A DNA stretch of 64,000 bases from positions 3,598,001-3,662,000 of the forward strand of contig CM075994.1 in NCBI GenBank assembly GCA_038087875.1, written 5' to 3'. How positions within the stretch are numbered: position 1 is the first letter of the stretch; every line of letters starts with the position of its first letter. This document shows, in pieces, positions 2,065 through 31,075 of the stretch. The notes under the pieces are model-generated. The model saw nothing but the letters and a program-made list of their open reading frames with translations. It ran no database searches and was not told the origin of the DNA. The stretch is from Malacoraja senta. Taxonomy: Eukaryota. Both the position numbers and the translations under genes were made by a program.

Positions 2065-2930
2065 CAGGGGGTGTGTGAATCAGTGCGGGGTGGATAGAGG
2101 GCGGGGGGGGGGGGGGGGTTGAGAAGGCAATCGGTGCGGATGGATGGATTGAGGCAGGTGAATTAGTACGTGTTGGTTGGAGTATGTAAAATTGTGAGGG
2201 GAGAGCACGGGGGATGTCAGTGGTGTTGAATGGGGGGGGATCAGTATGGGATGGATGGGGGGGGGATCAGTATAGGATGAATGGGGGGTTCAGTACAGGA
2301 TGAATGGGGTAGACAGAAATGCTGGAGAAATTCAGCAGGTGAGGCAGCATCTATGGAGCTAAGGAAATAGGCAACATTTCAGGTCGAGACCCTTCTTCAG
2401 ACTGTTCCCCCATTCTCCTTGAATGGGGGGGTTCAGCACAGGATGAATGGGGGGGGTCAGGACAGTGTGGATCGGAGGGTCTATGCAGGATGAAATGGGT
2501 GGTTCAGTACAGGATGAATGAGGGGATCAGTACAGGATGAATGGGGGGTTCAGTACAGGATGCATGAGGGGATCAGTACAGGATGAATGGGGATCGGCAA
2601 AAGATGAATGGGGAGATCACTACAGGATGGATGGGGGATTGGTGCAGCGGTAAATGGAGGGTGGGTCAGTACGGGATGAATGGGATGATCAGTGCAGTAT
2701 GAATGGGGGAGAAGTGCAGGATGGATGGGAAGGGGGGTCAGTACAGATGAATTGGGGACCAGTGTAGGATGGATGGGGGGGGGGGTGGCAGGACAATCAA
2801 TGCGAGGTGGGTAGGGTGATGAATAGATTGGGGGGGTTAGATGGGGAGGGAGCAGAGGGGATGTCAGTGAGGACTGAATAGAGGAGGGAATGGGATCAGT
2901 GCGGGATGGATAGGAGGGGTCCCAGGATAA
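2065..2930 (+). repeat. G-rich degenerate minisatellite (about 21-bp unit GGGGGATCAGTACAGGATGAAT) inside the hAT element
   Basis: Many tandem degenerate copies, interrupted by a pLTR fragment at about 2308-2402. Confidence 0.85.
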
Positions 2931-3711
2931 GAGGGGTGGAGGGGGATGTACAAGAGAGAGAAAGAGGGGGGGAAGGGGCAGAGGAAGTGGGGAGGAAGGA
3001 AGGTCAGCGCTCCTCGGACAACATCGCCCCGCTGCCTTGGCCGTCCCTGTCCAATGCCAAAGTGCCGCCGCCTCCTCCCCTGCTCCGCCAGCCGACAGCA
3101 AGGTGCGGGGCTGAGCGATGCAGCTCTTAGATCCTATAGCTGTAGGATCTTTGGTGCAGCTGCTTCAGACGGCGGAAGGAGACCTCCCTCTCCCTCCCTC
3201 CCTCCCGGCCTCGGCATGCGAGAGGGGTTGGTTTGAAAGCACCGTTAGCGGAGTTGCAAGCAGCGAACGTTATCACGGCGATAGAGCCGCTGATGGCAAA
3301 TCCGCAAAAGGCGCTTTGAAAACACCCCCTCCCACACACCGAGGCCAGGAGGAGGGGGAGGGAGAGGGAGGCCTCCTTCCGCCGGGCTGGGTGCGGGAGG
3401 AGGAGGCGGTGGAGCCGCTGTCGCGGCCGCTGTTTAGGGGCCCGTCATTTGCCCCGACCCTTCGTCACCACGCACCTAGTATCTTTCATCCGCATCAAAG
3501 ATCCTAGAAGAACACAGTCGCCGACCCGAAACGTCAGTTCCTATTCGCCGGAGATGCTGCCTGACCCGCGGTGTTACTCCAGTTTTTTGCGTCTACCGGT
3601 ATAAACCAGTATTTGGGTGCCAAGCCAGGCAAAATGAGTCGGCGTTTAGGTTGCCCGGGGGCACTTTCTGTGGTCAATGGCACCCCGGGCAACCGCTAAT
3701 TTCGAGCCCTG

Positions 3712-6002: not shown

Positions 6003-6107
6003 CTTGATCAGGTCGCACTCGCTGACCGGTCCGTACTTCTCGAACAGGGAGCGGATCTCCTCGACGGTGGTGGGCCGCGACAAGTTGCCCACGAAAATCT
6101 TCACCAT
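6003..6107 (-). CDS. rbm4: RBM4/lark-like coding exon 1 (35 codons, start of RRM1)
   Basis: ATG at 6107, [35 protein letters not shown], then donor AAG|gtgggg at 6002; joins exon 2 in phase 0. Confidence 0.93.
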
Positions 6108-6229
6108 CTTCCTTGTTCTTTTGGAGCGTTTGGAGATGAATAGTGGATAAAGCAGGAGAGGGAGGAAATACGAACTACTGAGCAACAACACAAGTTTAAA
6201 AACAACAAACGCCGGCGACTCTCCGACTC

Positions 6230-7289: not shown

Positions 7290-9812
7290 AGTGGGGGGGG
7301 GGGCAATGAAAATGGAGAGCAAGGGCGACCTGGAGTTGGGGAAGTCAATGTTCATACTGCTGGGTGTAAACGGCTTTGTTAAGACGGACTGACTGGAGGT
7401 GTTCAGCATAATGATCGCCGAGCCTGCGCTTGGTCTCGCTGATGTAGAGAAGTTGACACATGGAACAGCGGATGCAGTAGATCAGTTTCGAGGAGGTGCA
7501 AGTGAACCTCTGCCTCACCTGGAATAACTGTTTGGGTCCATGGATGGAGTCGAGGGGGGAAGGTAATGGGACAGGTGTTGCATCTCCCGTGGTGTAAACT
7601 ACCCAAGCAAAATATGAGGTGCTGTTCCTACAATTTGTGCTGGGCCTCACTCTGACAATTGAGGAGGCCCAAGACAGAAAGGTCAGATTATGAATGGGAG
7701 TGGGAGTTGAAGTGCTGGGCCGCCGGGAGATTAACTTGGTTAAGACGGCCTTAAAGCAAAGTAATGCTCATATTTCATATGCCTGCTGGGAAGAGACCTT
7801 GAAAACACCTGTCTATCAAATCAGGTTATCACTACTGGGGAAAGGCATTATAAACATCAATGTTTATAATTGTTGTTAGCAATACCCCAGGAGTTGGAAG
7901 TAACAATAACAGGGATTGAAGCAGGACTCCTGAAATTATGTTTGCAAACAAGAATATATTGACAGTGGCAATACTCCTGGGAACAGTTTGGAAACAACAT
8001 TGAGTGGGTCTCGTGCAGAACTAGCAGAAACAATGTTTGTAAGCAGCCAATTATGAGTAGGTGCATTACTGCTGGAGACTGTTTGCAAACAGGTGCCGAT
8101 GCCTCAGCAGAGATGCAAATAATCTTCCTCTTGGAGTCCCTTGAGAATGAGGATTATTTGCTTTCACTCCAGTTATGTGATTTTGAGATGGCTGGAATGG
8201 CCTATATGGGAACTCAAGATTCTTCCATGGATGGGGAAGGTGGTGGCTGATCCAGTGTGTGAGTGATCCAGTCCTTACACAGGGTTCTTATGTGTTCACA
8301 GCATCCAACCTTAATGTTCTCAAAGCTAGCAACAGGGAACTGTAGATGCTGGTTTGCAAAATAAGCCATAGACTGCTGGAGTAGCTCAACGGGTCAGGCA
8401 GCACTTCAGAAGAATATGGGTAGGCAACTTTTGGAGGTCTGGACACTTCCAATTGTTTCTTCAGGCTGATTGTGTGTCGGGGGGGGGGGGGGGGGTAATG
8501 AAAATAGAGAGCAAGGGTGACCTGGAGTTGGGGAAGTCAATGTTCATACTGCTGGGGTGTAAACTACCCAAGTGAAATATGAGGTGCTGTTCTTCCAATT
8601 TGCGCTGGGCCTCACTCTGACAATGGAGGAGACCCAGGACAGAAAGGTCAGATTGGGAATGCGAGGGGGAGTTGAAGTGCTGGGCCACCGGGAGATCAGC
8701 TTTGTTAAGACGGACTGACTGGAGGTGTTCAGCATAACGATCGCCGAGCCTGCGCTTGGTCTCGCTGATGTAGAGAAGTTGACACATGGAACAGCGGATG
8801 CAGTAGATCAGTTTCGAGGAGGTGCAAGTGAACCTCTGCCTCACCTGGAAATACTGTTTGGTACCATGGATGGAGTCGAGGGGGGAAGGTAAAGGGACAG
8901 GTGTTGCATCTCCCGTGGTGTAAACTACCCAAGCAAAATATGAGGTGCTGTTCCTACAATTTGTGCTGGGCCTCACTCTGACAATTGAGGAGGCCCAAGA
9001 CAGAAAGGTCAGATTAGGAATGGGAGTGGGAGTTGAAGTGTTGGGCCGCCGGGAGATTAACTTGGCTAAGACGGCCTTAAAGCAAAGTAATGCTCATATT
9101 TCATATGCCTGCTGGGAAGAGACCTTGAAAACACCTGTCTATCAAATCAGGTTATCACTTCTGGGGAAAGGCATTATAAACATCAATGTTTATGATTGTT
9201 GTTAGCAATACCCCAGGAGTTGGAAGTAACAATAACAGGGATTGAAGCAGGACTCCTGAAATTATGTTTGCAAACAAGAATATATCGACAGTGACAATAC
9301 TCCTGGGAACAGTTTGGAAACAACATTGAGTGGGTCTCGTGCAGAACTAGTAGAAACAATGTTTGTAAGCAGCCAATTATGAGTAGGTGCATTACTGCTG
9401 GAGACTGATTGCAAACAGGTGCCTATGCCTCAGCAGAGATGCATATAATCTTCCTCTTGGAGTCCCTTGAGAATGAGGATTATTTGCTTTCACTCCAGTT
9501 ATGTGATTTTGAGATGGCTGGAATGGCCTATATGGGAACTCAAGATTCTTCCATGGATGTGGAAGGTGGTGGCTGATCCAGTGTGTGAGTGATCCAGTCC
9601 TTACACAGGGTTCTTATGTGTTCACAGCATGCAACCTTAATGTTCTCAAAGCTAGCGACAGGGAACTGTAGATGCTGGTTTGCAAAATAAGCCACAGACT
9701 GCTGGAGTAGCTCAACGGGTCAGGCTGCACTTCAGAAGAATATGGGTAGGCAACTTTTGGAGGTCTGGACACTTCCAATTGTTTTCTTCAGGCTGATTGT
9801 GTGTCGGGGGGG
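7290..9812. repeat. Direct tandem duplication (units about 7290-8490 and 8490-9812) containing Penelope GIY-YIG fragments
   Basis: Near-identical ORFs offset by 1326 bp (7403/8729, 7857/9183); copy 1 lacks about 130 bp. Confidence 0.92.
8490..9065 (-). mobile_element. Penelope-like element 3' fragment (GIY-YIG endonuclease); second copy at about 7300-7740
   Basis: FTCTSSKLIYCIRCSMCQLLYISETKRRLGDRYAEH...PVAQHFN...RKLEEQHLIFHLGSLHP..MN. Confidence 0.88.
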
Positions 9813-10563: not shown

Positions 10564-11190
10564 TTTATTCATCATATACACAACAAAGTGCAGTGAAATG
10601 AACTTGCCAGCAGCGGTACAATCAAAAAGAACACACAATACACTACAAAAATTCAACACAAACATCCACAACAGCATTCTTCACTGTGGTGGAAGGCACA
10701 AAGTATAGTCAGTCCTCCTCCATTGTTCCCCCGTGGTCGGTGCCATAAACCTCCGCCGCTGCAGGCAGCCAGATGCACAGGCCCTCTCGTCTGGAAGGCA
10801 AGTCCAGAATCAGTGCTTCCCCATGTTGTAGGCTGCAGTGCTTCAGGATGTTGTAGGCTGCAGGCCGGCAGTCGGAGCTCATCTCCAGGGATCCCAGGTG
10901 AGGGATCCCGCTCCGGAAGGTAAATCCACGCCGCGCCCGCAGATAGAAGCTCCGCAGACCGCGGCTTCAAGATGTTGTAGGCCGCGGGACGGCGGTCAGA
11001 GCTCATCTCCGGGGATCCCCAATGAGGGATCCCAGGCTCTGGTCACCGCGCCCGCGGTGAGAAGCTCCAAGGACCGCAGCTTCAGGATGTAACAATCCGT
11101 GGGGCAGCGATCGGAGCACTACTTTCTGGCGACCCCGGCATGGGTTCGCCCCGCTACATGATGTAAAAATGTTAACAGCAACTTCAACGT
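10545..11190 (-). mobile_element. GC-rich non-autonomous retroelement (same family as 36380-37278)
   Basis: 3' region matches 37080-37255; internal tandem repeats of about 120 bp. Confidence 0.8.
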
Positions 11191-11884
11191 TGTTGTGCAG
11201 AAAATTAGAGATGAAGTTGCATGCAAAAAATATGGATCTCAATAGACGAGACAACTGATACAGTGGGGAGATGTGTTGCCAATGTGGTCATCGGTACACT
11301 GCAGGCAGGTCAACCATCAAAGGAGTATTTCTTGACATTGGAAAAATTGGAGAAGTCAAAGAGCTCAACTATTGCTCAGTTGTTTACATCTTCACTTGCT
11401 GTACTTTGTACTTAAAGTTCCTGGCGATGTAGGTAAAGACATACAAGGAAAATGTTAGAGGGGAATTTAGCTAACAAAGATCTTGAAGAAATACAAAACA
11501 TAGCTTAAGTTCTCAAAGGTAGTTGTAATGCACAAGATATTGACATGAATATAGAGTTTGTAGCTTGTTTCAGGTATGCACCAGTGACCTCAGCTGGGGT
11601 AGAAAGAAGTTTTTCACAACTGAAGCATATTCTGTCTGACAGACGGCATAGTTTTACACCAGATATTTTGAAAAAAATGCTAGTAATTATGTGCAACCAG
11701 GCAACTTTGGTCATTTAATGTAGTATATACCTTTACATTATCATTTTAAAGCATATTTTGGTGGCGGAAATAAATGCCTTTTTTTTGTCAATTAATGGCT
11801 TTTATCGTGCCTTTTTTGTAATTTTATTATGCACTTTTGCCTGCCTATTTCAGAGATTTTTAGCACCTAATCATCCTGGCTCTG
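11190..11884 (+). mobile_element. Internally deleted CGGBP1-like hAT transposon remnant
   Basis: KIWISIDETTDTVGRCVANVVIGTL followed, after a deletion, by FRYAPVTSAGVERSFSQLKHILSDRRHSF (hAT C-terminal motif); terminus-like ...TCCTGGCTCTG. Confidence 0.8.
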
Positions 11885-12028
11885 GTCTTCAGTTTAAGAA
11901 GGAAGTGCAGATGCTGGAAAATCGATGGTAGACAAAAATGGTAGGGAATCTCAGCAGGTGAGGCAGCACCTATGGAGCGAAGGAAATAGGCGCCGTTTTG
12001 GGTCGAGACCCTTGAACCGAAACGTCGC

Positions 12029-15000
12029 TTAATTGTCATCTGAGTCACTCTCGAGCAGAGCATCCTCCTCATCAGACATGTCACTGTCAGAGGCAGATGA
12101 TGCAGCTGGGTCCTCTCCCATGTCAGGCCTCATTGCCCTCATCCCTTCTGCATGCCACAAGCTGATGGCTGGCCGGGGATCAAAGTCCTTGATGTTACTG
12201 CCATACAGCATGTTGAGGAGCTGGTCTGTCACCTGGAGGGACCTTCTGATGCTGGTCATCAGCTGCTTTAGCCTGCTGAAGCCTCGCTCAGCCTCAGCTG
12301 AACTTGCCGGTATGGTAAGGACGAGGTCAAGGAGAGTGCAGATGTTAGGTAGCTCTTCTCTCATCACAGGGATGATGGCTGACCAGGTCAGGGCCTTCTT
12401 GCTGAAGCTATGTAGAGTCATTAAAAGTTATTAACAATACAACTTGTTACATGAGAATATTTATGAAATTAAGTTTTGAATTCTTCAAAAGTAATACAAT
12501 ATTACAAATGCATCATTTAAAAAGAATATTTGAACATTTACTTTGATTGGGAGCTGATCACCACTTTCAGGAGGTCCAACTTTACTCCCAGTTTTGTTGG
12601 GTCCACGTGTTGTACTGTGGTTAGGCTGCCCTTGAAGTGCTGTGCCAGTGACTGGACAGCTTCATTTAAAAAATGTGCGGAAAATAAAGAAAATAAATAT
12701 TGAATCAGTCGACTACTAGCTCTTAGGGCACATGCTTTGAACTTATGTTGCACTTAATCAACTGATGTCACTGTCAGTGTGGAGAATTTCTTCCTGTATT
12801 TTGATATAAAATCTCAAGTATGTAATCATTGTTATAGACTAGTTGTAACTTTACCTTTACGTTTACGGTAAAGTTTAGATTATGATCCATTGTAGCTCAA
12901 AACAGAAAGCTTTATAAAGAAGTAACGTGCAGCAAATTCAGAGAGAATCATATAGTGAATCATACATTATGATTTGCTCCAAATTTCCTCCAGTGTGGTA
13001 TTAAAAATATCTGACTCCTACAAGGAACTAGGCTTTGCAATTGAAATGAATTACTATGAGGTGAACGGAATTAAACATACTGAACAAAAATATGCAATAC
13101 ATCATACTTTAAAAAATCTACATATTTTAAGATTTACTTGAGTTGTTCTGTAAAAAAGCCCATGAACATTTTTCAACATTACTCTTACTGAAATATCACC
13201 TGATAGTTTGCCGTCTGGCCAGAAGTTGAAGCTGACGATCTTCATTGCCTCGCAGACTCCGTCACTCAAGTCATGAAATCTGCCTTGAAGACTTGTTGCC
13301 AGACCATGCAGCAGTTGTGTCAGTCCAGCCTCAATGTCGGTGCTGCCGGTCAGATCTCCCTGAAAATGTGCTTGAAATTCCTGATGTATGAGAAAAAAAA
13401 ATTATAATGCAGTGATTAATGATTTTTTTTTCTGTTAGGTAACACCAATACGTTCATGAAATGTAAAACAACTTCATTTTGCTAAACTGCAACAAAACTG
13501 TTGTGTAGAAATGTGAACCTATCTTTAAATGTGTGTATGACTGACAAAAAAAATGCTGCGTCAACATGGTTTCAGTGTTTTTTCTTTTAATCTTACAATT
13601 CATTGCATGTTAACCTTTGACAAGAATTACCTTTCCTTGTACATTACAAGCGTGGTTTCAGCAGCATGAATGGAACTACATTTGCGTTGATGTTGACTTC
13701 TGTACCACAAGGGACACCTGTGCAATGATACAATCAAAAATGGACATCAAATGAATTAATGGACTTACTTATCATTACACACGGAAACGTTAGTGTACAT
13801 TCTATCATTAAAAAACTGTTTGAAATTAGCACATCCCTGCGGAAATATAAATGGAACTATAGTAAAATTTAACATTAATTTTCTTATTATTGGGACTAGC
13901 CAAAATGAAAATGCCTTCAAGTGGCATTTAAGCATATTATCAGCAATTTTGGTGGGTGTTTTCTCTGTAAAATTAAAGTTTGTGGTGTAGCCTGAAATGC
14001 GAAGTAAAGTTGATGGCTGATTGGCAGAAAACCACAGCAGTTGTGAAAGTGTTGAGTTTATGGTCATAGTGCACCATTAGTTCATTGCTCATATTTATAG
14101 TATTCTTGATATCCATATTTTAAAAATAAAAAATACTCAGTCATTCTGTAATGCTTGATATTGCTCACCTTGGAAAGTATAATGACAACATCGTACAGGA
14201 AAAGGATATACATCAGCACATCCCTGTGCTCCAACAGCTTGTTGAATCCCTTTGTCTTGGCCCCGGCTTCACTGGAAGTGCCCACCTGTGCTTGAAGCTG
14301 CAACAATAATGAGAGAGATTGAAAGGTGGTATTAATGAGCCAGGAAAACAGTAACGCACATGTATTTGATGTGCTTAATGATTACTATTTGGTTATAACT
14401 ATTTATTTTGGAGGAATGACATGCCTCATCCTCATTCATTTTTATCTGGAATCTTCCATGAAAGTTCTAAAATCATGACATGTAGTTATTTCATTTCATA
14501 ATTGTAATTGATTCTAGTTTCAGAAAAAAACTAATTAATACCTGACAGAGATGAGGCACAATCGCTTGGTAGCGTCTGAGGAAATTTCTTATGGCCCGTT
14601 CAAAGTGGGAAATCCATCTTGTTCCTCCCACCCTCGTCGGGATTTCTGGAGCGATTCCAACTGCTTCCGCAGACACTTTGAGGGCACTTCTGTTTTTTGA
14701 ACTGTTCCGGTAGAACAAATATAAGTTCAGAAACAGAGAGTTGACTGTGTTACACAGGTTGACTCCCTTCATGGCGTCCTTGCAGGCCAACTCTAGATGA
14801 TGGGCAGACCAATGCACTGCCTGTACTTCGGGATTCAGACCCTTCATCAAGGTTGCGACGCCACGTTTCCTCCCCTGCATCACACTTGCTCCATCAGAAC
14901 TGAAACCCACCAGTTACTGGGACACTTCCTCTTTATCCATCTCCAGTCTGTGCTTCTGAGCATCAGAGCAGCTTTGATGGACTCGGCATCTGCAGTTACC

Positions 15001-15831
15001 ACCTTTGCCACTGCCACAAACTCTGTGTTGATGGTACCATCGCATGCATGCCGGACATAGACAATCTCATCTTCAGTGATAGAAGAATCAATTGTCCCAT
15101 CACTGATGATGGAGACAAATGGAGACTTCTTCACACGCTGGACTATGCTTCGTCTTTCCACCTGTTCATGAAATTGAATACAAAATGACCTAATTCAGTG
15201 ATTAAATTAACAGACCTGATTTACAATAATATATGTAATGAGATGAATATTGTTTCTATCTACGGAACACTTATGTACTTCCGCTATGAAATGGATGAAG
15301 ACCTGAGCTGCACGGTCATTCTGGTAGGCCGTGCCGATATCGAGGCCCTTCACACTATCCAGCTGACACAGCCAGACGTAGTCGGTGAAAGGCCTGCTTT
15401 CTATAGCCATGGCATGGGCGTTCCTCAATAGGTGTTCCAGCCGATGAATGGTTGTCTCGATAATTTTCTCGATCATCCTTTCTGCTTTTAATGATCCCGC
15501 CTCCGCATGTCTTGCTGCCATTATGCCAACTGCTTTTTGGCGGTTCTCGCTCTCTTCATGTCTCTTGACTGAGTGCAGCTTAAAACTCGTGCTACCATTA
15601 AAAAAACATATTCTGTGTTTTCCCTGGCTCTCCCTTCACGTTTGCCTCCCTGCAAACCTGGCAGAACGTTCCCCCTTTCTTCTCATCATACCTCAACCAT
15701 TTGTGATCACGTTCCCATTCCTTCCTGCAACTTCTTGATCTTTTCTCATCCTCATACTCGTTATCCCTTTCATTTTTTCTTTTCGCTGCCTCATCCCTTG
15801 GGTTTGCCACATTTTTCAGGTAACACCACAT
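12029..15831 (-). pseudogene. Intron-containing hAT transposase (ZNF862-like), at least 7 exons, decayed
   Basis: Exons about 15831-15279, 15161-14542, 14297-14169, 13717-13631, 13380-13200, 12674-12542 and 12407-12029, mostly with GT..AG boundaries. TTF-type Zn finger (WLRYD..TFCQVC), SIISDG, FSSDGAS, VHWSAHHLEL, TRW, PASSAEAERGFS. Frameshifts near 15600 and 14965, in-frame stop near 14915. Confidence 0.88.
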
Positions 15832-16644
15832 GATTGATCTCGAGGATCCACAGGCTGACTTATGGAAAGAAGCATGTGCATGGAGCCCCACGTGTCACAT
15901 TAGTGATGTATCGGGCGTGCTGAATTCAAGTCGCATTTTTATTGCCCTTTTTATTTTGACTAGATTAAGTGGTCAGTGGCCTCACTCTTCCTTGAAAACT
16001 GTCGATGTCCCAAAGACTTGGTCTTACACAACCAGTGCAAGTCTCTCTCTCTCTCTCTCACTCTCTGTTTCTCATTCTCACACAGTATTCTCACTATTTT
16101 ACACCTCACGAGCATGTCATTTTCATTCTCTTTCTCTCATATATCTCTTTCATAATGTACATTCTCTCGTATATCTCTTTCATATCATACATTAAGGATG
16201 CTACAGATACATTTGCCCAATACTCATTCATTCAATCCCAGGTAAGACCAGGTAAGATTAAATGTTAATTGGGTTATTTCACGATCTGCCTGACCCGCTG
16301 AGTGCAACATTTTTTATTTCAGATTTTTCACATCTACAGTACTTCGCTTGTATGTTGTACTTTTCCACTAGAAGTAGTATTTTTTTTTACATAATTATTT
16401 AAATCCTCACACCAAAGAATAAGAAAGCTAGCTGGTTGGTTCAAAATAAATCATGTATATAGTGTAAGGTTACTTGTGAGGCATTTGGAGTTAATTCTTG
16501 TTAGTTTACCATGCTTTTCTACATTTGTATATATATTTTTGTAAATAAATCTAAGATAATTTACAATGTGTATTGGTCAGGGATATTTATCAGTAAGTGC
16601 GATTGATGGAATCACGTTTAACAGTGAGCTGATTACCAGTAGGT

Positions 16645-16866
16645 TTAAGATGGAACTGCGGATGCTGGAAAATCGAAGGTAGACAAAAATGCTGGAGAAA
16701 CTCAGCGGGTGACTGAGACAGCATCTATGGGGAGTAGGAAATAGGCCACGTTGCGGGTCTAGACCCTTCTTCAGACGTCTGAAGAAGGGTCTCGACCCGA
16801 AAAGTCACCTATTTCATTCGCTCCATGGATGCTGCCTCGTCACCCGCTGAGTTTCTCCAGCATTTT
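16645..16866. mobile_element. Palindromic pLTR-derived insertion with back-to-back hammerhead cores and a 15-bp TSD
   Basis: Centre ...cccttcttcagacgtctgaagaaggg...; TGATTACCAGTAGGT at 16630-16644 and 16867-16881. Confidence 0.88.
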
Positions 16867-18268
16867 TGATTACCAGTAGGTGTTAATTAGGCTACAATAA
16901 CCCAAATGTGGGGTGGAATATTTACAGATAATGTTTAATTGAGAAAAAGACAAACATTAGGAAGCAGACTGAACTCGAGTAGACACTGGTCCTACCAACA
17001 TTCAGTTCGCCATCTAACAAACCTCAACCTACCTTGGATTTACAAACTTATTTTTCCTTTATCAATTCTCAACTACTTTTCTGGCGAAGAAAGGCTTTGG
17101 GTTATTATACCCTACCTGTGGAATAAATGCTTCCAACCAGCACAACTGAATTTGTCCGTCTCAATTTCAGGGCATCCTCTTGAAGGTACGTTTCACCTCA
17201 TCTCCCCAACAAGATCCTCAATTAAGCCATTTTACTTCCTTTTAAATGGATTACGAAACCTCATTCATAATTGAGACGTTTAGATACTTCCTGTAACTGC
17301 TTTACCTTTTAATTCTGGCACATTTTCTTTGTGTCCATGTCTTCAAACATCATTCTCGCACACTTTATCTCAAGGTTTATTTCTTTTCTTTGCCTCATCC
17401 CTTCGGCTGCCCTGCCTTTGGAACATCTCCCACCAAGAGATGGACCTCAAATAAGGGAATTACTGCTCCACTTTGTCAATGACGATGGCAGCCAAGATGT
17501 GGTGTCAGATAGGCCGGGATTAGAGGGTGCAAACGAACAAAAAGTATTGGGGGTTAGGGCCAGGATTGCTATCCAAGGTAGGATGGTGTTGATACCTTGG
17601 GGTTTGACAATGAGAAGAGGAATCAAGGGCTCGCAGATGATTTGAATGAAAGTTGAGACCTGACAAAACTTAAGGAGAGGGGAGAATGGGAGTTGCAATG
17701 ACAGTTTGATGTTAGCTTTGTTTCACAGAATGTTTTGTTTCCTGCCCAGCTCCCATTGCTTTGCACGGAACATTAACAGTTTTGTTTGCTGAGCTAACCT
17801 TGCAGAAAATAAAATGGTGAGACAGACCAGGAATGATTCATTGGACCCTTCCTGCTTGGACAAATATTTAGGCAAAATCTGAAACTGTTAAAAGTATGTG
17901 ACAAAAGTAAGGAAAATGATAAGGAATAAAACTTTATTTGTTTTCCGAAATAGGTAATAAAAACACTACAGTTAGCGAGAATTCAGATTACACATCAGAT
18001 TGCAGGAAATCTAAGTCATAAGACCATTTTGTTGTGGTTAGCCCTTTATTAGCAACTAAACAAAAAAATACCCTATACAATGTTGGCAGCAGCTGTTTGC
18101 ACTGCAGCTTATATTGAGTAACTACGGTATGAGCTCATAAATGCAACTGACGGATATAACATGCATCAAAATGCCTTTATTTTTTTAAATAAATAAATAA
18201 TTTAAAAAATACAGCATAAACAATATAACTAAGATTTAATGTTCTACCTTAGAGAAGTACAGAGTAAC

Positions 18269-18301
<33 letters not shown>

Positions 18302-18497
18302 ACTCACACACACACACACAAAATCAGTAAACACTCACTTTCACAAATATTACATATGCATGATCAAATTAAAGGCATACATTAAAAACAACGAAGTCTG
18401 AAGAAGTGTCTCGATCCGAAACGTCGCCGATTTCTTTTGCTCCATAGATGCTTGCTGCCTCACCCGCTGAGATTCTCCAGCATTTTTGTCTACCTTA

Positions 18498-21400
18498 AGA
18501 GGGAGAGAAGGGATCAGATTTGGGATTTTTTTATCCCGCGAAAATGCGTATTTCCTTTAAGGGTATTGAAAAGTCATTTGTTAAGCCTGAAGAAGCGTTT
18601 AAATATGCCCAAACTATCGTTGAAAGGAAAGGGAGGTTTGGCAGATCTGAACCATTTTAAGCAATGCTTTGTCTGGGGATAGTTACACTGTTATCTTTGG
18701 AATGTTGAATCAAGGACACTTTCTGTTTAAAACGAGTAAACAACTCAACAGATGGGAATGGTATATACCAGAAAGCATATAATTGCTTATTAGATTATAA
18801 TATTATAACCAATTATAAGAACTTATCCTATTAACAACTTAATAAGTTATGCATGTTAGATTAGAATACTAATAAAAACAAAAATAAAAAATAATGAACT
18901 AACATACTAATATGAATTCTTAATAAACTGAAACCCTATCTATAAGTGGGAGGAGGGGATGAGAAACGAGCAACTGGCTTAGGTCCAGGGGCACGTCTCG
19001 TTAACCCCTTCAACCATCAGTTGATTCTTATTGAAGTCAAAAGTATCGGTTTAATAATTAGCAGTTAAAATTCCGATATATATATATGTTATAATGAGGC
19101 CCCGTTTTAATATTATAATATGTTATGATTAACCAAGAGAGCGGAGCTATTTGTGCAAACAACGCAATGGAAGTCAAAACAAGGTTTTTTCCCACCTACA
19201 GGTGGGACACTCGCTACAGTGCCGACTATATCAGACACTGTATCTTCACTTTTTTAGGTTTTTTTTTATCACATAAAATCACTTGTTTGTGTTTTGTGTT
19301 TAGTGATAAGCGTAAAATGGACATACCAGCAAAACTTAAAAACTCAAAAGCTCCCCCAATACCTAAAGACCTAGGATATGGATGCACCACAAGATTTAAA
19401 GGTACTATAATTATTCAAAATGCATGACACCACACAAAAGAACCTAGGAGGAATCTCATTTTGTAGTTGGAATATAAGAGGTATTAACGAACCTTTTAAA
19501 AGGGGTAAGATACTAGCTCAGCTGAAATTGTACAACTCCGACATTACCTTCCTACAAGAAACACACCTAAAATCTCAGGATCAAGTTAGGTTGAGGGCGA
19601 AATGGATAGGTCAAACATACCATTCTTCATTTACTTCAAAATCTAGAGGCACGTCAATCATCATAAGAAAAGGTATACCATTTAAAGCAAAGAATATTAT
19701 AACAGATATAGAAGGGAGATACCTAATAGTTAATGGAGAAATCCATGACACTCCACTTACTTTGGTAAATATATATGCCCCTAACTTTGATAACCCCCAC
19801 TTTTTCAATAAAATTTTCAACATAATTGCAGATGTTATAATAGGAGGAGACTTTAACTGTGTTTTAGATCCGTACTTAGATAAATCAAGTCAAAAACAGA
19901 GAGGGAATATGAAATCGAACTGGTGAACTTCTCAATACCTATATAAACAACACTAATATAGCAGATGTTTGGAGAATTGTTAATCCAACTGGCAGGGAAT
20001 ACTCGTTTTACTCAATGGTACATAAGACATACTCACGTATAGACTACTTTCTGCTGGATACAAAATTAATCCCCCAAACATCTAATGCAATATACCACAC
20101 AAACTCGATTTCAGACCATTCTCCACTAACTTTCTTTTTAAAACTGGAAGGATTGTCTAAGAATAAATCGTTTTGGAGATTTAATTCTCAAATTCTAAAA
20201 GATCCACAAGCGAGTATATATGTAAAAGAACAAATGGAGGTCTTTTTTCAAATAAATGATACTCCAGATATATCGCCTACTGTATTATGGGAATCTTTTA
20301 AAGCATACATTAGGGGTATTATAATTTCATATCAAGCTTTTCAAAATAAAAAGAATAAGAATAAACAAAGACAGTTAGAAGAACTTATTAGACAAATGGA
20401 TATAGATAATGCTAAAGATCCATCAATAGATAAACATAATAAAATAATAATTTTGAAATTTAAATTAAATAAATTATTATCTGCCAAACTTATAAGACTT
20501 TTTCAAATTACAAAACAAGAGCATTTTGCAGTTGGGGATAAACCGCATAAACATTTGGCTCGCCAGCTAAAAAAACGAGAAAAGGAACATACTATACCAA
20601 AGATCAAATCAGACAAAGGGGAATTATTAACAACACCGAAGGATATTAATAATATTTGCGCAATTTTATGAGAATTTGTATACATCTAAAACGACAATTG
20701 ATTCCAATAATATCACAAAGTTCTTGGATACCTGTAATCTTCCAAAGTTAGAGCTGAAGGAACAAGAGGAACTGGGTGCACAAATCTCAATTAAGGAATT
20801 AGAAGATACAATAAACTCACTAAAGAATGGAAAAACACCAGGCCCTGACGGATTTACTAATGAATTTTATAAAAGCTTTTATGATAAAATGATACCAAGA
20901 TTACAAAAAATGTACCAATATGCTTTTAAAAAACGAATACTACCTGATACATTAGCGGAATCAACGATTACATTAATACCTAAGAAAAATAAAGACTTAG
21001 AAGAACCTGGTTCATATAGAGCTATAGCATTGTTAAACACAGATCAAAAAATATTAGCGAAAACATTAGCTAGAAGATTAAGTAAATACATTAGTAAATT
21101 AATAAACCCAGATCAGACGGGGTTTATCCCTAAGAGATACTCATCTAACAATATGAGACGTCTACTCAACATAATGCACTCACACAAATCTGAAGATCAA
21201 GAATTATCAATTATTTCGCTGGATGCTGAAAAAGCATTTGATCAAGTAGAATGGAATTATATGGACAAAGTATTACAAAAATATCAACTGGGGGAGAATT
21301 TTATTCTATGGATCAAGTTACTATATAACAAACCTACAGCTAGAATACTAACTGATAACATATTATCCTCGAAATTCCAACTATCAAGGGGAAATAGACA

Positions 21401-23610
21401 AGGATGCTCATTATCACCACAGCTGTTTGCTCTCATTATTGAACCGCTAGCAGAAAAAATTAGAATACACCCTGATATCCATGGATATAATACTAAAGAT
21501 TCATATAATAAAATATCTTTATACGCGGATGATATATTACTGTACATTACAAAACCTCAAATCACTATACCAAATATATTAAATTTAATTGAAGACTTTG
21601 GATCTTTTTCTGGATATAGAATAAATTGGAATAAAAGTGAAATTATGTCAATAAAACCGAAAGATTCAACACATCTTTTAAAATTCCCTTTTAAAATAGC
21701 AACAGAAAAATTTAAATACTTGGGAATCGAAATTACCAGATCATATCAAGGTATGTTTAGGGCAAATTTTGACCCCTTACTTAATAAATTAAACACACTA
21801 ATTAAATTCTGGAAAACGCTCCCGATGTCTTTAATAGGCCGAATAAACGCAATAAAAATGATCTTTTTACCACAAATTTTATACCTATTTCAATCAATTC
21901 CTATATACTTACCAAAGAAGTTTTTTAAAAAACTCGACTCAGATATCACTAATTTTATATGGGACTATAAATCACATAGAATACAAAAAACTCATCTGAA
22001 CAAACCTAAAGTATTAGGGGGTTTAGCACTACCTAATTTTATGTATTGTTATTGGTCAGTAAATATTAAAAATATGATTCAACTGATGGATAACTCCGCC
22101 CAGCAAGTGGACTGGATTGTAATGGAGAAAGAGGATTGCTCCTCTAGAAACATTGGAGCGATCCTCCTCTCTCCAATGAAACTGAATAACATAAATTATA
22201 ATAAGAACCCAATTATTCATAGTACAATCCGAATTTGGAAACAAATAAAACAAAATTTAAAATTAAGAAATTTATCACTTTTATTACCTATAGTCAATAA
22301 CCCTTCGTTTAATCCTTCTATTATAGATAAAGCTTATACACAATGGGATAGATTAGGAATTAAAACGCTTGGTGACTTGTATGAAACTGGAAAATTAGTT
22401 TCATTTCAACAATTACAAATAAGATATAAACTCGGAAATAATCAATATTTTAAATATTTTCAAATATGCGACTATTTGAAAAAATATACAAAAGATCATT
22501 ATAATAACCCAGTAGATGTATTGGACGAGGCAATGCAGATAAAAGCGGAATCAGCAAACTTAATATCTTATTTGTATAATATTATCTTAAATGTACAAAT
22601 ACCACCTACGGAGGGTATCAGAAGAGACTGGGAACAAGAGTTAGCTATTAAAATTTCAAAGGAAAGTTGGAATGAATACTTATTAAACGTGCATAAATGC
22701 TCGATTAATGTAAGACACACTTTAATACAATTTAAAATTTTACATAGATTATATTATTCGAAAACTAAAATTCATAAAATTTTCCCAAATGTATCATCTA
22801 TTTGTGATAAATGTCAATCCCAAGAAGCTACTATAGCGCACTCATTCGTTTTCTGTACAAAAATTCAAAAATTTTGGAATTAAATTTTTGAAATCTTTAC
22901 AAAGTTATTTAAAACATGACTGATACCCAAAGCAGAATGGATTATCTTCAGTATAACGGAAGATGGTCCAGAACTAAATGTGTTTCAAAAGAAACTAATG
23001 GACTATGGGTTAATAATTGGAAAAAAGCCAATTCTAAAATTTTGGAAGAAGGCTCCAATACCAACTATAAATATGTGGATTTCAAATATGTTTGAAACAT
23101 TACACCTAGAAGAGATAAGACTCCTCCTAGCAGGTAAACCAGATCACTTCCACCTGACGTGGTCTGCATTTATAGAATTATTACAAACATAGGGTGCAAA
23201 AGTACTTAAAAAAAAATAAAAAAAATTGAGGTCAGGTAAGGGGGGATGATAGTTGAAGAGTTGGTATGTCCCATTTACGTAATGCTCATAAAAATATTTG
23301 TTTCTCTCTTTTTCCTCTTTCTCTCTCTCTTTCTTTCCTATGGTCTATTTCTTAACTCTTTTTCTTTTGTTTTTAACTTTGCTCTTATAGGGTCTTCGTC
23401 CTTTTTTGTTGTCACATTTCCTACACTTTCACTTTTTCCTTCAATTTCTTCTTTCTTTCAATCTTTTCCTTTTCTAGTGTAAAAAATAAATGGAGTACAA
23501 TAATTGTAAGAAGATATAAATGACGAGTACTAATGTATGTGGTTGTAATGTAATGTACTTCTAATAAATAAAAATTAAAAAAAAAAAAAAAAAAAACAAC
23601 AACAAAAAAA
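18498..23610 (+). mobile_element. 5'-truncated L1 LINE (family a): ORF1 C-terminal remnant, long inter-ORF spacer, disrupted ORF2, poly(A)
   Basis: ORF1 tail GIRFG..YPAKMRISFKG; ORF2 19420-23192 with APE (SWNIRG, LQETH, GGDFN, SDH), RT (QGCSLSP, YADD) and a C-terminal Cys/His motif; several frameshifts and stops; AATAAA plus poly(A). Confidence 0.96.
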
Positions 23611-23774
23611 CGATAGCAACAGTTCGATCTCCTGACGCGTCATAGAGTGCGCCGCGTCGTCGCTTCCATGGATCGCCACAAGGAGGCTCCTTTCATGATC
23701 CCCAAAGTAACAGGAATTTAACAGTAATAGCATCGTGCACGCAGGGAAGTGGGCTTATGCATGCGAGGCGAAGA

Positions 23775-23871
23775 TGCTTGCCAAGCCGGGCAGAATGACA
23801 CGGCTTTTCGGTTGCCCGGCGGGACTTTAGGTGGCCATTGGCACCCGGGCAACCGCTAATTTCGAGCCCTG
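23775..23871 (-). mobile_element. hAT terminus shared with 3615-3711; probable 5' end of the element carrying the intron-containing transposase
   Basis: About 95 bp alignable to the right end of the 1032-3711 element, ending in the identical GGGCAACCGCTAATTTCGAGCCCTG; abuts interrupted Gypsy sequence. Confidence 0.8.
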
Positions 23872-24181: not shown

Positions 24182-24517
24182 TAGAAACATAGAAACATAG
24201 AAAATAGGTGCAGGAGGAGGCCATGAAGTCCTTCGAGCCAGCACCACCATTCATTGTGATCATGGCTGATCGTCCCCAATCAATAACCCGTGCCTGCCTT
24301 CTCCCCATATCCCTTGATTCCATTACCCCCTGGAGCTCTATCTAACTCTCTCTTAAATCCATCCAGTGATTTGGCCTCCACTGCCCTCTGTGGCAGGGAA
24401 TTCCACAAATTCACAACTCTCTGGGTGAAAACGTTTTTTCTCACACCTGTCTTAAATGGCCTCCCCTTTATTCTAAGATTGTGGCCCCTAGTTCTGGACT
24501 CACCCAAGATTGGGAAC
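24182..24517 (-). mobile_element. CR1/HER1 3' end (continues at 31076-31520)
   Basis: SRTRGHNLRIKG...FTQRVVNLWNSLP plus (TTCTATGT)n tail. Confidence 0.9.
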
Positions 24518-24646
24518 CCAACAGTCGCGATTTTCCACGTTCTGGAGGTCGGGACCGTTTTAAAAAACTTACCGGAGTCTCATGTCGCGGCGCTGATGAC
24601 ATCATCAGTAAGCGCCGTGAATTTAACAGAGGGAAAGTCATTTAAA

Positions 24647-25786
24647 ATGAAAAATACATCTCCAGGTCAGAGCCCACAGAGGAAAGTTACAAAACAATCG
24701 CTGAAGACTCTCGAACATCAAGAAACTGCAAAACGGACCTCTGGAGTGGTTTCTGGAATGGACACACGATCTAAGACTGAGATGACCACAAAAGAGAAAA
24801 CCGAATTGGAGGAGTTAAAAAACTCGGTAAGAGATTTGAAAAATGACTTGAAAGTTGGAAACATAAATTTGATGGCCGGTAATGAAAAAATACTTGCGGG
24901 CATTGGTGCTCTCCAAAAAAGAGTGGATGATGTGCAAGAAGAATTAACGGGGAAAATTAATAAGATGGCAGAAGAGACCACAAAGATGTTTGAGGCTGTG
25001 CATGAAACTGTTTCTGCAAATGTAACTGCAGTGAAAGATATGGAAGCTGTTGTGGAAGAGATGACCGGAGAGATGCAGACGATGAAGTTAGAAATAGACA
25101 GCCTCAAGAGCCATCTTACAAAAGTGTCTGATAAATGTGTTGACCTAGAAGCTCGCTCAAGAAGTCAAAATATACGTATACGTGGAGTAAAAGAGGGAGC
25201 TGAGGGGGACAATGCTTGTGAGTTCACTGCCAATCTAATTAAACACGTACTCAAACTACCTGAGGCACCTGTAATTGAAGTAGCACATCGACTACCCAGA
25301 TTTAAACCAAGATCTCAAGGAGCACATGCCTACCCACGACAGATCATAGTTAAACTTCGGGATATCCCAACAATGGAAGCGCTGATGAAAAAAATCAAAT
25401 ACGGAGAGGAGATGATGTACAGAAATGATTCTATTAAACTCCTACGGGATTACCCTTACGAGATTGTGCAAAAGAGAAGAAAGTTCTCACAGACCAGTGA
25501 AGTTCTTTACGGTGTCAAGGGTGTCATATGTGGAGTGTATTATCCAGCCAGGATGCATATTACTTTCATGGGAAAGTCAAAAACATTCATTAACTCGGTA
25601 GAATCTCTTAAATACGCTCAAGAAATCGTGGCCAATCAGCAACAAGTGAAGATTGATCACCAAGACGTCATGAACAAATTAATTTGTTTATTCCCCCATC
25701 AGGAATATCACAAGAAAAGTGAAATAACTGAACATCAATCTTTTAAAATTATTACACGCAACAGATTTTCCAGGAGACGTGTCTAG
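24647..25786 (+). CDS. L1 ORF1p (coiled coil plus RRM/CTD), open
   Basis: ATG at 24647 in frame with ORF 24290..25786; DLEARSRSQNIRIRGVKEG, IEVAHR, PRQIIVK, YPARMHI. Confidence 0.9.
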   Translation: MKNTSPGQSPQRKVTKQSLKTLEHQETAKRTSGVVSGMDTRSKTEMTTKEKTELEELKNSVRDLKNDLKVGNINLMAGNEKILAGIGALQKRVDDVQEELTGKINKMAEETTKMFEAVHETVSANVTAVKDMEAVVEEMTGEMQTMKLEIDSLKSHLTKVSDKCVDLEARSRSQNIRIRGVKEGAEGDNACEFTANLIKHVLKLPEAPVIEVAHRLPRFKPRSQGAHAYPRQIIVKLRDIPTMEALMKKIKYGEEMMYRNDSIKLLRDYPYEIVQKRRKFSQTSEVLYGVKGVICGVYYPARMHITFMGKSKTFINSVESLKYAQEIVANQQQVKIDHQDVMNKLICLFPHQEYHKKSEITEHQSFKIITRNRFSRRRV

Positions 25787-26910
25787 ACATTATTATCTCC
25801 CCTTGAACATTGCGGCATCTAACTCAAGGACACTCTGTGCTCAAACGAGGAAAGACTGATAACATGGGACTGACGATCTGATGTGCTGAGAGCGAAAAAC
25901 ATCACATGGCTTATATAGTTTTATAAAATATTGAGAATCAATAATAATTAATAATTAACAATACTAATATAGAAATAGCAATTGAAACTGATAAAAATGT
26001 GTTGCCTGCTTTATAACACAGACAACAGTAATTACATATGTTCCGCAGCTCGAGTGGGGAGGGGAGGAGATTAGGCACCTGGCATAATTCCAGGAGCCTG
26101 ACTCCGGTTAACCCTTTCAGCGAACAGCTCACTTTTAACAATACTAAAACCAATTCAAAATAGTTAAGAGATAAAGAGTGAGGAATATATGTAACTGAAT
26201 ACATTTGAAGTCGGAATGAAACATATATATGGCTTATAGAGTTTTACAAAATATGGAGAATCAATAATAATTAATAATTAACAATACTAATATAGAAATA
26301 GCAATTGAAACTGATAAAAATGTGTTGCCTGCCTTATAACGCAGACAACAGTAATCACATATGTTCCGCAGCTCGAGTGGGGAGGGGAGGAGACTAGGCA
26401 CCTGGCATAACTCCAGGAGCCTGACTCCGGTTAACCCTTTCAGCGAACAGCTCACTTTTAACAATACGAAAACCAATTCAAAATAGTTAAGAGATAAAGA
26501 GTGAGGAATATATGTAACTGAATACAATTGAAGTCGGAATGAAACATATATATATACTGCAACTGGGTGAAATAGAACTGATTTGGAAATGGTACCGACC
26601 CCCTAGGTTTTGGGTAATAAAGGCAGCGGGGCTAACATCATAACATCTACGCCGGAAGCGATATCGATGTCGTACCCCACAGACGAGTGGGACACTCACT
26701 ATGGTGTTGAAATCTCAGACACCGTAAACTTATTTGATATACTTTTATTTTTTATTTTTATCACAATACGTCACATCTATGTGTTTTCTTTCCAAGGACA
26801 ATCGCGGAGGAGAACTACCAAGGAAGTCTATAATAGAAATGCCCCCAAAATAACCAGAGTCCTGAGGTATGAATGCACCATAATAAATAAGATCATTAAA
26901 ATTGGTAAAA

Positions 26911-29900
26911 ATGTACGTTGATAATCAAAAGAAAATGGGAGGAATCACACTATGTAGCTGGAATATAAGGGGTATTAATGAACCTATTAAAAGGGGCAAG
27001 ATACTAGCTCAGTTGAAATCATACAACACGGACATTTCGTTTCTACAGGAAACGCATCTTAAACATCAAGATCAGACGAGACTGAGGGCGAACTGGATAG
27101 GACAAACATTTCACTCTTCATTCACCTCCAAATCTAGAGGTACTGCAATCATCATTCGTAAAGGAATTCCATTTAAATCAAAGAATACTATTTTAGATAA
27201 GGAAGGGAGATACCTTATAGTAGCAGGAGAGATCAATAATACGCCAATTACGCTGGTAAACATATACGCGCCCAATTTCGATAACCCTCAATTTTTTAAT
27301 AAAATTCTGAATATAATTGCAGAATTTAATTATCAAAATGTTATAATTGGAGGAGACTTTAACTGTGTTTTAGACCCTTATCTAGATAAATCGATGCAAA
27401 AACAAAAAGGTAATATGAAATCTAAAACCAGTGAACTTTTACATACATATATGGAAAACACAAATATAGCAGATGTGTGGAGGATTGCAAACCCGACGGG
27501 AAGGGATTATTCGTTTTATTCAACGGTGCATAAAACATACTCACGGATAGACTATTTTCTTGTGGATACAAAATTAATTCCGCACACTATGAACGCTAAA
27601 TACCACACTAATGCGATCTCAGACCACTCTCCGTTAACTTTTGTTTTAAAACTAGATTTATTCATAGACATTCCTTCTAGTTTTAAAACAAAAGTTAACG
27701 GAATTATATTCAGAATTTTATTAAAATTTAAAGACCCACAAGGGAGTATATATCTAAAAAAACAGATGGATCTATTTTTTGAGATAAATGATACACCAGA
27801 TATTTCCCCCACGCTATTATGGGAATCCTTCAAAGCATTTATTAGAGGAGTCATTATTTCATTCCAAGCTTTTCAAAATAAAAAGAATAAGAATGAACAA
27901 AGACATTTAGAAGAACAAATAAAATAATTAGATACAGATAATGCTAAAGATCCAACTATGGATAAACATAATAAAATCCTACTATTGAAATTCAAGCTAA
28001 ATAAATTACTGTCAGAGAAAGTTATAACATTATTTCAAATCACAAAACAAGAACACTTCGAATTCGGGGACAAACCCCACAAACTCCTAGCACGGCAACT
28101 GAAAAAACGGGAAAAAGAGAATGCAATATTAAAGATTAAATCAGACAGAGGGGAATTATTAACGCTACCCAAGGATATCAATAAAAGATTTGCTCAATTT
28201 TAACAGAATCTATACAGAATTTTTAGATAACTGTAACCTACCACAATTAGAACTGAGGGAACAAGATGAACTGGGAGCACAAATTACTTCTAAGGAGATA
28301 GAAGACACAATAAAAACACTAAAGAATGGAAAAACACCAGGACCAGACGGATTCAGTAATGAATTTTATAAATCTTTTTATGACATAGTTACTCCACGAT
28401 TACAGAAAATGTATACACATGCTTTTAAAGAGCAAAACTTACCTGAAACACTAGCAGAATCAACGATCATATTAATACTTAAAAAAGATAAAAATATAGA
28501 AGAACCAGGATCATATAGAGCTATTGCTTTGTTAAATACGGATCAAAAAATAATAGTGAAAACACTAGCCAGTAGACTAAGCAGGTATGTTAGTAGACTA
28601 ATAAATGAGGATCAAACAGGATTTATACCTAAGAGACATTCATTTAATAATTTGAGACGTTTGCTTAACATAATGCACTCACATAAATCTCAGGACCAAG
28701 AGTTATCTATCATCTCATTGGACGCAGAAAAAGCGTTTGATCAAGTAGAATGGGACTATATGATTAAAGTATTGCAAAAATTCCAATTGGGAGAGAACTT
28801 CATTGCATGGATAAAACTATTATATAACAAACCTACGGCTAGAATACTAACTAATAATATATTATCCTCGAAATTTGAACTATCAAGGGGCAATAGAAAA
28901 GGATGTTCATTATCACCGCTGTTATTTGCTTTAGTAATTGAACCCCTTGCTGAAAAAATAAGAACACACATGGATATTTACGGTTATAATACAAAATATT
29001 CAAATAACAAAATATCCCTATATGCCGATGATGTACTATTGTACATCACAAAACCACAAATTAGTATACCAAATATATTAAATTTAATTGAGGACTTTGG
29101 ATCCTTCTCAGGATATAGAATAAACTGGAACAAAAGTGAAATTATGTCGATAAAACCAAAAGACTCAACACACCTCAGGAAATTCCCCTTTAAAATAGCT
29201 ACAGAAAAATTCAAATATTTGGGAATTGAAATTACTAGAAATTACCAGGATATGTTTAAAGCCAATTATAATCCCTTACTTAAGAAATTAAATAATATGA
29301 TTAAATTCTGGAAAACACTTCCGATGTCCTTAATAGGCAGAATAAATGCTATAAAAATGATTTTCTTACCACAAATCCTATACCTATTTCAATCAATACC
29401 TATATATCTCCCAAAAAAGTTTTTCAAAAAATTGGACTCAGACATTACAAATTTTATATGGGATTATAAATCCCATAGAATACAAAGAGCACACCTTAAT
29501 AAACGAAAAGAGTTGGGGGGTCTCGCGCTCCCTAACTTTATGTATTATAATTGGGCAGTAAATATTAAAAATATGATTCACCTGCTGGACAATTCTGCCC
29601 AGCAGGCGGACTGGATTATAATGGAAAAAGGGGACTGTTCCCCGAGTAATATAGGAGCGATTATTCTCTCTCCAATAAATTTGAATAATAAAAATTATAA
29701 TAAAAACCCAATTATAAATAGCACAATTAGAACATGGAAACAAATAAAACAGAATCTAAAATTAAGAAACCTATCTCTCTCAATACCAATAGTTAATAAC
29801 CCATCGTTTAAACCTTCAACCATAGACAAATCATTTATACAATGGGAAAGAATGGGAATCAAAACGCTCGAAGATCTGTATGAATTGGGAAAATTACTAT

Positions 29901-30691
29901 CATTTCAACAACTACAACTGAAATATAATTTGAAAAATAATCAATATTTTAAATATCTACAAATTCGTGATTACCTGAAAAAATACACAAAAGACTATCA
30001 TAATATGCCTTCCGACTTACTAGATGAAGCAATGAAGACAAAGGCGGAATCAGCTAATCTAATATCGTACTTATATAATATCATTTCAAACATAGAAATA
30101 CCCACAACAGATGGAATTAGAAGAGACTGGGAACAAGAATTAGCTATAAAAATTTCAAAAGAGAGCTGGGATAACCATTTACTACAGGTGCATAAATGTT
30201 CGATCAACGTACGACATACGCTCATCCAATTCAAAACATTACATAGACTATATTATTCAAAAACTAAATTAAATAAAATCTTTCCTAATGTTTCACCAAT
30301 CTGGGATAAATGTCTATGTCAAGAAGCTACCATAGCGCATTCTTTTGTTTTTTGTACAAAAATCCAAAAATTCTGGTATGAAATATTTGATATTTTCTCA
30401 AAATTAATTAAAATAAAACTGGTACCAAAACCAGAATGGATCATTTTTGGAATATCGGAAGGTATCCCTGAATTAAACGTGTATCAGAAGAACTTATTCA
30501 ATTACGGGCTAATAATGGGAAAAAAGCTCATACTTAAATTCTGGAAAAATGCGCCCACACCAACAATAAAAATGTGGACATCAAATATGTTGGAAACATT
30601 ACATCTGGAAGAGATGAGATTCCTCTTAGCAGGTAAAGCAGACCAATTCCAAAAGACGTGGTCTACGTTTCTGGACCTATTACAAGCATGA
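26911..30691 (+). pseudogene. L1 ORF2p (APE endonuclease, RT, Cys-rich domain), disrupted
   Basis: Three ORF pieces; stops near 27927 and 28203 and a frameshift near 28200; YADD at about 29021. Confidence 0.95.
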
Positions 30692-31075
30692 GGTGCAATA
30701 GTAATTTAAAAAATAAATAAATAAAGAAATGGTATCAGGACCTGGTAATGGGAGGTAAAACAATAAAAACAGACTTGGTTGGTGGTTCCCTTTCTGCGAT
30801 TGTTCCTACTCTCTTTTTCTTTCTTTTCTAGGAACTACTTTCTTACTTTACTTCCTTCTCTAACTTCTTTTCTAAGGGGCTTTCTTTTCACAACACTCTC
30901 TTGCACTTCACGACTCTTGCGCACTTTCTTTACTTTTCTTACTTCTATCTTTCTCTTAAAGCTCAAAAAAATGAAGCGGTATAAAAAATGTATTAAGATA
31001 TAAGTGTTGTGTATTACTGTAATTTACCGTACTTCTAATAAATATAATTAAAAAAAAAAAAAAAAAAAAAAAAAA

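Follow-up and report, generated by a model that had tools for sequence, protein, structure and literature searches.

hAT transposases bind the terminal and subterminal repeats of their elements, excise them and join them to target DNA, with a stagger of 8 bases in most. Hermes from Musca domestica has a BED finger and 8-bp target-site duplications (TSDs), and the hAT5 group was reportedly set out by Kapitonov and Jurka in Repbase Reports in 2007. Section 3.1.2 of PMC12730594 gives the hAT families with 5-bp and 6-bp TSDs as hAT5 and hAT6, near Blackjack and other animal hATs (a term search of its supplement returned no hAT5, hAT6 or Blackjack entry), and excerpts of PMC9004415 record hAT5 in invertebrates and fish; so far these elements are known mainly from Repbase entries. 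Here we describe a dead, seven-exon hAT transposase gene in a 64,000-nucleotide stretch of the skate Malacoraja senta (GenBank contig CM075994.1, positions 3,598,001–3,662,000; hereafter the window), probably what is left of a hAT5-type cut-and-paste element that begins at 23871 and was acquired horizontally. BuT2 of Drosophila is likewise a multi-exon animal hAT with elements resembling miniature inverted-repeat transposable elements, and differs in its five exons, 8-bp TSD, 12-bp terminal inverted repeat (TIR) and place in the Tip clade (sections of PMC3942097 on this element). The skate locus is no new kind of system; what is notable is a 5-bp duplication and closeness to a sea urchin protein, and it affords a worked hAT5-like example in a cartilaginous fish, with gene structure, ends and duplication. 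In the literature (Repbase and Dfam lay outside this search) we found neither a paper describing this family from skates nor one on a hAT transfer between urchin and skate, and 'skate' combined with 'hAT5' returned no paper.

Structure and decay of the transposase gene

The gene lies on the minus strand, with its ATG at 15831, its stop at 12029 and six introns that separate seven coding exons. Six-frame reading and tblastn reveal seven colinear minus-strand blocks in the window, and spliced alignment places residues 1–701 of the closest protein, Strongylocentrotus purpuratus XP_011668961.1 ('zinc finger protein 862-like', 701 aa; hereafter P0268), on 15831–12032 with 64.3% identity (444/691). 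A Diadema protein (P0003) aligns to 15831–12062 (54% identity, 368/680), and the TAA at 12031–12029 coincides with the end of P0268. Additional coding exons upstream are ruled out, both proteins aligning from residue 1 at 15831. The exons are as follows.

15279–15831, minus strand: exon 1, with the ATG and a C17orf113/TTF-type zinc finger; +1 frameshift in a T run near 15600
14542–15161, minus strand: exon 2, with SDG and SDG (predicted first and second catalytic Asp motifs), a mutated CxxH and TRVGGTRW; frameshift near 14963 and stop at 14914–14916
14169–14297, minus strand: exon 3
13631–13717, minus strand: exon 4, with a frameshift near 13684 and a hand-read phase-2 donor
13200–13380, minus strand: exon 5, acceptor region damaged and a few codons lost
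12542–12674, minus strand: exon 6, with AC in place of AG at its probable acceptor
12029–12401, minus strand: exon 7, with ERGF (predicted catalytic Glu motif), the hAT dimerisation domain, an acidic tail and the stop

Introns 1, 2, 3 and 6 (15278–15162, 14541–14298, 14168–13718 and 12541–12402) have clean GT–AG ends. Introns 4 and 5 each have a damaged acceptor, and the automatic aligner chose adjacent intact sites (13596–13381 and 13182–12652); read by hand, these introns would run from 13630 to about 13381 (phase 2) and from 13199 to 12675 (phase 1), a putative reading that fits both the tblastn blocks and the intron positions in relatives. An earlier note on this DNA, made from the letters alone, had proposed a dead ZNF862-like hAT transposase of at least seven spliced exons; the alignments bear this out with exactly seven, broken by three frameshifts (near 15600, 14963 and 13684) and one stop (14914–14916).

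The acidic motifs SDG, SDG and ERGF are intact in the window copy, as is TRW, and a catalytic role for the three is predicted by analogy with Hermes. Dimer_Tnp_hAT (PF05699) is recognized on exon 7 at 28.5 bits (Pfam cut-off 21.4). The same note's zinc finger and CxxH-like motif fare less well: zf-C17orf113 is cut by a frameshift into parts that score 22 and 16.6 bits, under the cut-off of 29.5 (intact P0268 reaches 41.1), and the CxxH motif carries C302W and R306H (P0268 numbering), the C and R of HCxAHRLEL. Overall, the copy deviates at 22 of the 176 positions that are invariant among four intact relatives. An AlphaFold model of P0003 (mean predicted local distance difference test score 89.6) has Hermes as its best Protein Data Bank (PDB) match in Foldseek (4D1Q, E 2e-10, 14% identity), which suggests the same overall fold, of RNase H D-D-E type with a helical insertion; the window gene differs from Hermes in its zf-C17orf113 finger and its 5-bp-TSD partner element. 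Sequence search of the PDB with the transposase gave no real match, and no relative of the protein was found in viral_contigs. Among sequencing runs, one contained 0.51 of the query words and a second from the same organism 0.24, compared with 0.06–0.12 in 21 rows from seven other organisms, figures that we do not count as evidence; the listing included no RNA run.

The beginning of exon 1 is weakly repeated at 17350–17448 on the minus strand, within the putative 5′ region (score 57, against a best of 35 in 30 shuffles); an Atlas search with the overlapping peptide 17312–17446 gave no usable match.

Termini, target-site duplication and extent of the element

The 17-mer CAGGGCTCGAAATTAGC occurs exactly twice in the window, both times on the minus strand, ending at 3711 and at 23871. 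The two ends are identical over their first 25 bp, 86% identical over 94 bp and unrelated further in, so that the 'near identity' claimed for them earlier holds for the outermost 25 bp and fails beyond. One closes a 2.7-kb non-coding element within an RBM4 intron; the other lies 8,040 bp upstream of the transposase ATG. The features concerned are these.

1032–3711, minus strand: non-autonomous element in the RBM4 intron, inside a CR1-like fragment; TSD AATAA
11892–12028, no strand assigned: truncated hairpin repeat that abuts the stop codon; the 3′ untranslated region and 3′ terminus of the element are missing
15832–18394, minus strand: putative 5′ untranslated part, about 2.3 kb without the repeat at 16643–16874; presumed to belong to the element
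18395–23611, plus strand: later L1-type long interspersed element (LINE) insertion, 5′-truncated, with endonuclease and reverse transcriptase open reading frames (ORFs) and poly-A
23612–23871, minus strand: likely 5′ end of the transposase element, with terminal CAGGGCTCGAAATTAGC, two subterminal GGTTGCC/GGCAACC motifs and high CpG content (observed/expected 1.08)

The ends of the non-coding element are imperfect inverted repeats of CAGG type (11/17 with one gap), each with two GGTTGCC/GGCAACC motifs; six of the nine such motifs in the window lie no more than about 65 bp from one of these three termini. AATAA stands on either side. We joined the flanks with 0, 4, 5, 6 or 8 bases dropped and aligned them to CR1-like paralogs, which serve as empty sites: dropping 5 scored best and left the junction free of gaps in each of the four paralogs that extend across the site (two of the six tried do not). 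Because the empty sites favour 5, the element has a 5-bp TSD, as the earlier note had read it, and not the canonical 8-bp TSD of Ac, Buster and Tip. The suggestion that it is a mobilised derivative of the transposase copy does not stand in its simple form: a deletion derivative of this copy is ruled out, the two sharing only the 94-bp end and common hairpin repeats. Also ruled out is a single giant element from 1032 to 23871, whose flanks would be AATAA and CCATC and which would enclose an element with its own TSD. Eight exact matches to a 15-mer of the end in viral_contigs are regarded as chance.

We compared 25-nt end queries with 51 loci from a metagenome scan that carry related transposases. 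For the outermost 25 nt at 23871 the best matches are 22/25 in locus L006, 505 bp upstream of the aligned transposase, and 21/25 in L022, 679 bp upstream, both on the coding strand; shuffled queries over the same 51 loci reach 16–19 at best (0/100 reach 20). L010 and L039 resemble each other in their 5′ end and differ in their flanks. The 23871 end is therefore of the right family, type and orientation for the transposase, and our window scan found no terminus nearer to the gene. Between them lies the L1 insertion, which begins with a short piece of hairpin repeat and occupies a TT/AAAA site whose duplication, of about 10 bp, is imperfect and A-rich; with the L1 and one hairpin repeat removed, about 2.6 kb separate the terminus from the ATG. 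Family-level end matches and a plausible L1 target duplication thus bring support to the link that had earlier been drawn between terminus and gene, and we hold it probable that the two are physically one element.

At the other end of the gene, a terminus of the 1032 type could not be found in the window (best match of the 181-bp query 29, against 24–29 in 10 shuffles), nor could a duplication matching the 23871 terminus, in agreement with the earlier remark that the second end is not visible. Downstream ends of five relatives (L007, L008, L012, L023 and L024) read CAG, then TAA and a T- or A-run, and look 1032-like by eye.

Several observations weigh against this assignment and against its 5-bp label. 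The transposase copy is one-ended, which makes its own TSD unreadable, and the 1032 end reaches only 18/25 in the 51 loci (shuffles 16–19). The terminus stands about 2.6 kb from the ATG, compared with about 0.3–0.8 kb in relatives, and could therefore come from another, broken element; the duplication at the L1 is, as said, A-rich and imperfect. L006, L022 and the 5-bp relative L008 fall outside the own clade of the window protein. TSD length also varies across the wider group, because a distant, hAT6-like family (L032, L033, L035, L040 and L049; multi-copy, copies 95–98% identical, about 3 kb, CAGGGCCAATTAT ends) gives 6-bp TSDs in three of five copies, one being ambiguous and one imperfect. 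This family shares CAGGG ends with the skate element and matches its transposase at 37–38% over the exon-2 query, but is apparently intron-poor and lies on a long branch outside the 114-row clade that holds the window protein (FastTree).

Alternatively, the terminus at 23871 could be what remains of a non-autonomous element of separate origin that lies upstream of the transposase remnant by chance. In favour of this are the long spacer (about 2.6 kb without insertions), the occurrence of the same end type on a non-coding element in the window, and the lack of a second end or TSD that joins terminus to gene; the weak copy of the exon 1 start also hints at rearrangement. We consider this unlikely, since the end has the correct polarity, is of a type that stands 5′ of the gene in relatives, points at the gene, has no closer competitor and has no partner end in the window with which to form a separate element. 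Read as one element with the gene, it is likely hAT5-like: it encodes a hAT transposase, and 5-bp TSDs are found on the partner that shares its end (1032–3711) and on the relative L008. The earlier hAT5-like reading is upheld through that partner, on TSD length; a place in the hAT5 clade by phylogeny is putative, and so is the autonomous family that the earlier note suggested for this genome.

From these features we would envisage the following history. The host spliceosome would have removed the six introns to give a Hermes-like D-D-E transposase of about 700 aa. This enzyme would recognize CAGG-type ends together with their subterminal GGTTGCC repeats, cut the element out and join it to a target site with a stagger of 5 bases. 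Because the 2.7-kb non-coding element shares only its end with the transposase copy, its insertion into the RBM4 intron, with AATAA now on either flank, may have been carried out in trans by the same or a sister enzyme. Afterwards the L1 would have come between gene and 5′ end, the 3′ end would have been deleted and the ORF would have degenerated. An old burst at the locus, now extinct, is indicated by the 14% divergence of the two 5′ ends and by the decayed ORF.

Introns, relatives and origin

Seven exons seemed unusual for an animal DNA transposon in the earlier note. Spliced alignments to 29 of the 51 loci, picked mainly for higher identity, show otherwise: 10/29 have three to six introns, 8/29 have none within the aligned part, and an animal hAT of five exons, BuT2, was already published (PMC3942097, in its account of that element). 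Five of the six window intron positions recur in relatives, at 392/0 (eight loci of the 29), 535/1 (nine), 576/2 (six), 464–469/2 (six) and 184/0 (one, in L043, which has six introns); for the intron after residue 435 there was no exact match among the 29. The ORFs of two relatives, P0001 and P0002, end where introns 1 and 2 of the window gene lie. L008 is a complete 4.4-kb element with TIRs (13/15), a 5-bp TSD and three introns, and so introns and mobility coexist. Paired-TIR scans gave many chance pairs, and we count from them only L008 and the hAT6-like family. The interval 1923–4757 of L032 (10/12, 5-bp duplication) is a possible further complete element, and CAG[G/T]G ends of related elements adjoin or are nested in L031 (2314 and 2365) and L007 (3243).

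The named close relatives of the window protein are from sea urchins and Priapulus. P0268 and its Diadema, Lytechinus and Priapulus relatives have the same length and domain order as the window protein; they differ in being intact and annotated as host genes, and the comparison covers their proteins. In an IQ-TREE analysis of 36 proteins the window protein is sister to P0268 (support 100/99), within a clade of eight rows whose other members are urchin, priapulid or unnamed proteins, and a 130-row FastTree gives the same clade. Teleost, amphioxus and hemichordate relatives are far off. P0268 is 64% identical to the dead skate copy, as against 58% to its counterparts from Diadema and to another S. 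purpuratus protein. Grouping of the window protein with three teleost proteins, a group picked after the tree had been viewed, is rejected (P of the approximately unbiased test 2e-9). No cartilaginous fish protein occurs among the named rows of the matches listed (at least 120). In Diadema the very same protein is filed under three accessions, from two contigs. P0004 (Priapulus) and P0271 (Strongylocentrotus) are 81% identical over 353 aa, possibly a separate transfer between protostome and deuterostome in the same clade.

Seven exons, and relatives that databases call 'zinc finger protein 862-like', could suggest a domesticated, single-copy and syntenic ZNF862/C17orf113-like host gene, now a pseudogene, and in another hAT group, that of the CGGBP genes, the presence of introns was used to argue that hAT-derived genes no longer function as transposons (passages of PMC8097297). 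This is very improbable here. The copy has no intact ORF, with three frameshifts, a stop and two damaged acceptors; no shark or ray protein appears among the named matches listed, although the same database is well stocked with RBM4 proteins from these fish; and the intron-bearing relatives L006, L007, L008 and L010 sit between transposon ends. These intron-bearing loci show the intron criterion to be unsafe in this lineage. The worry that such a gene might be mis-annotated was fair, and neither a 'ZNF862-like' label nor the number of introns is a safe guide for telling mobile from domesticated hATs.

As to descent, the gene could be the same transposon vertically inherited, from an ancient hAT lineage of deuterostomes that urchins and cartilaginous fish have both retained, that selection for transposition has conserved and that is elsewhere lost or unsampled. 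Several distinct families do coexist in urchins, intron positions are common to very distant relatives, which makes the lineage old, and the rejection of the teleost grouping is compatible with ancient paralogy. Dead vertebrate copies are, moreover, poorly sampled in protein databases and would be missed; these last two points tell against a transfer. We nevertheless find vertical descent rather doubtful, given 64% identity over the full length despite decay, the distance of the amphioxus, hemichordate and teleost proteins in the tree, and the 81% urchin–priapulid identity, which suggests that the clade moves between phyla. Judged from the sequences, horizontal transfer into the skate lineage, likely from a marine invertebrate, seems the better explanation, and one we hold with reasonable though not high confidence. 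Contamination is argued against by the skate repeats that lie inside the element; the host is a skate, exon 225–377 being 100% identical to an Amblyraja radiata RBM4B-like protein and 98% to the Rhinoraja one.

A fuller scenario, which we favour only by a little, is that an intron-rich hAT with a 5-bp TSD, still carrying its six spliceosomal introns, entered the germ line of skates from sea urchins or from a benthic donor common to both, spread non-autonomous partners and died. Many invertebrate 'ZNF862-like' gene models would then be mobile transposases of the same clade, the clade would move between phyla, and introns would be no ground for calling a hAT domesticated. If an urchin–skate transfer is true, it would be a case from invertebrate to chondrichthyan with a multi-intron gene. 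The sea urchin closest relative, absent from the earlier note, is the most interesting point, and the intact, possibly recent urchin relatives offer a route to studying the 5- versus 8-base stagger of a hAT enzyme.

Other repeats in the window

The window is rich in LINEs and hairpin repeats. RBM4-like exons lie on the minus strand at 71–377 and 6007–6108, and the ORF across the former shifts frame near 225, by assembly error or possibly a genuine lesion. Hairpin repeats of about 200 bp recur at 1213–1433, 2308–2403, 11892–12028, 16643–16874, 18393–18496 and 38158–38257, one arm sitting at the extreme 5′ end of the L1 insertion. They contain CTGAAGA...GAAAC, which we take to resemble the hammerhead-ribozyme core of Penelope-like elements. 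A fragment is duplicated locally within 7373–9700, and its ORFs (7345–7767 and 8461–9093) presumably represent a GIY-YIG endonuclease of such elements.

A second L1-type LINE, near full-length, occupies 24500–31075 on the plus strand; it shares 77% identity with the other L1 along roughly 4 kb and has a 323-bp tandem duplication between its ORFs (25906–26553). A second, unrelated hAT fragment lies at 11160–11884 on the plus strand, internally deleted, with the motifs ISIDETTD ... TSAGVERSFS and a closing terminus that reads CAGAGCCAGGATG on the minus strand; we assume it to be akin to CGGBP/hAT19-type elements.

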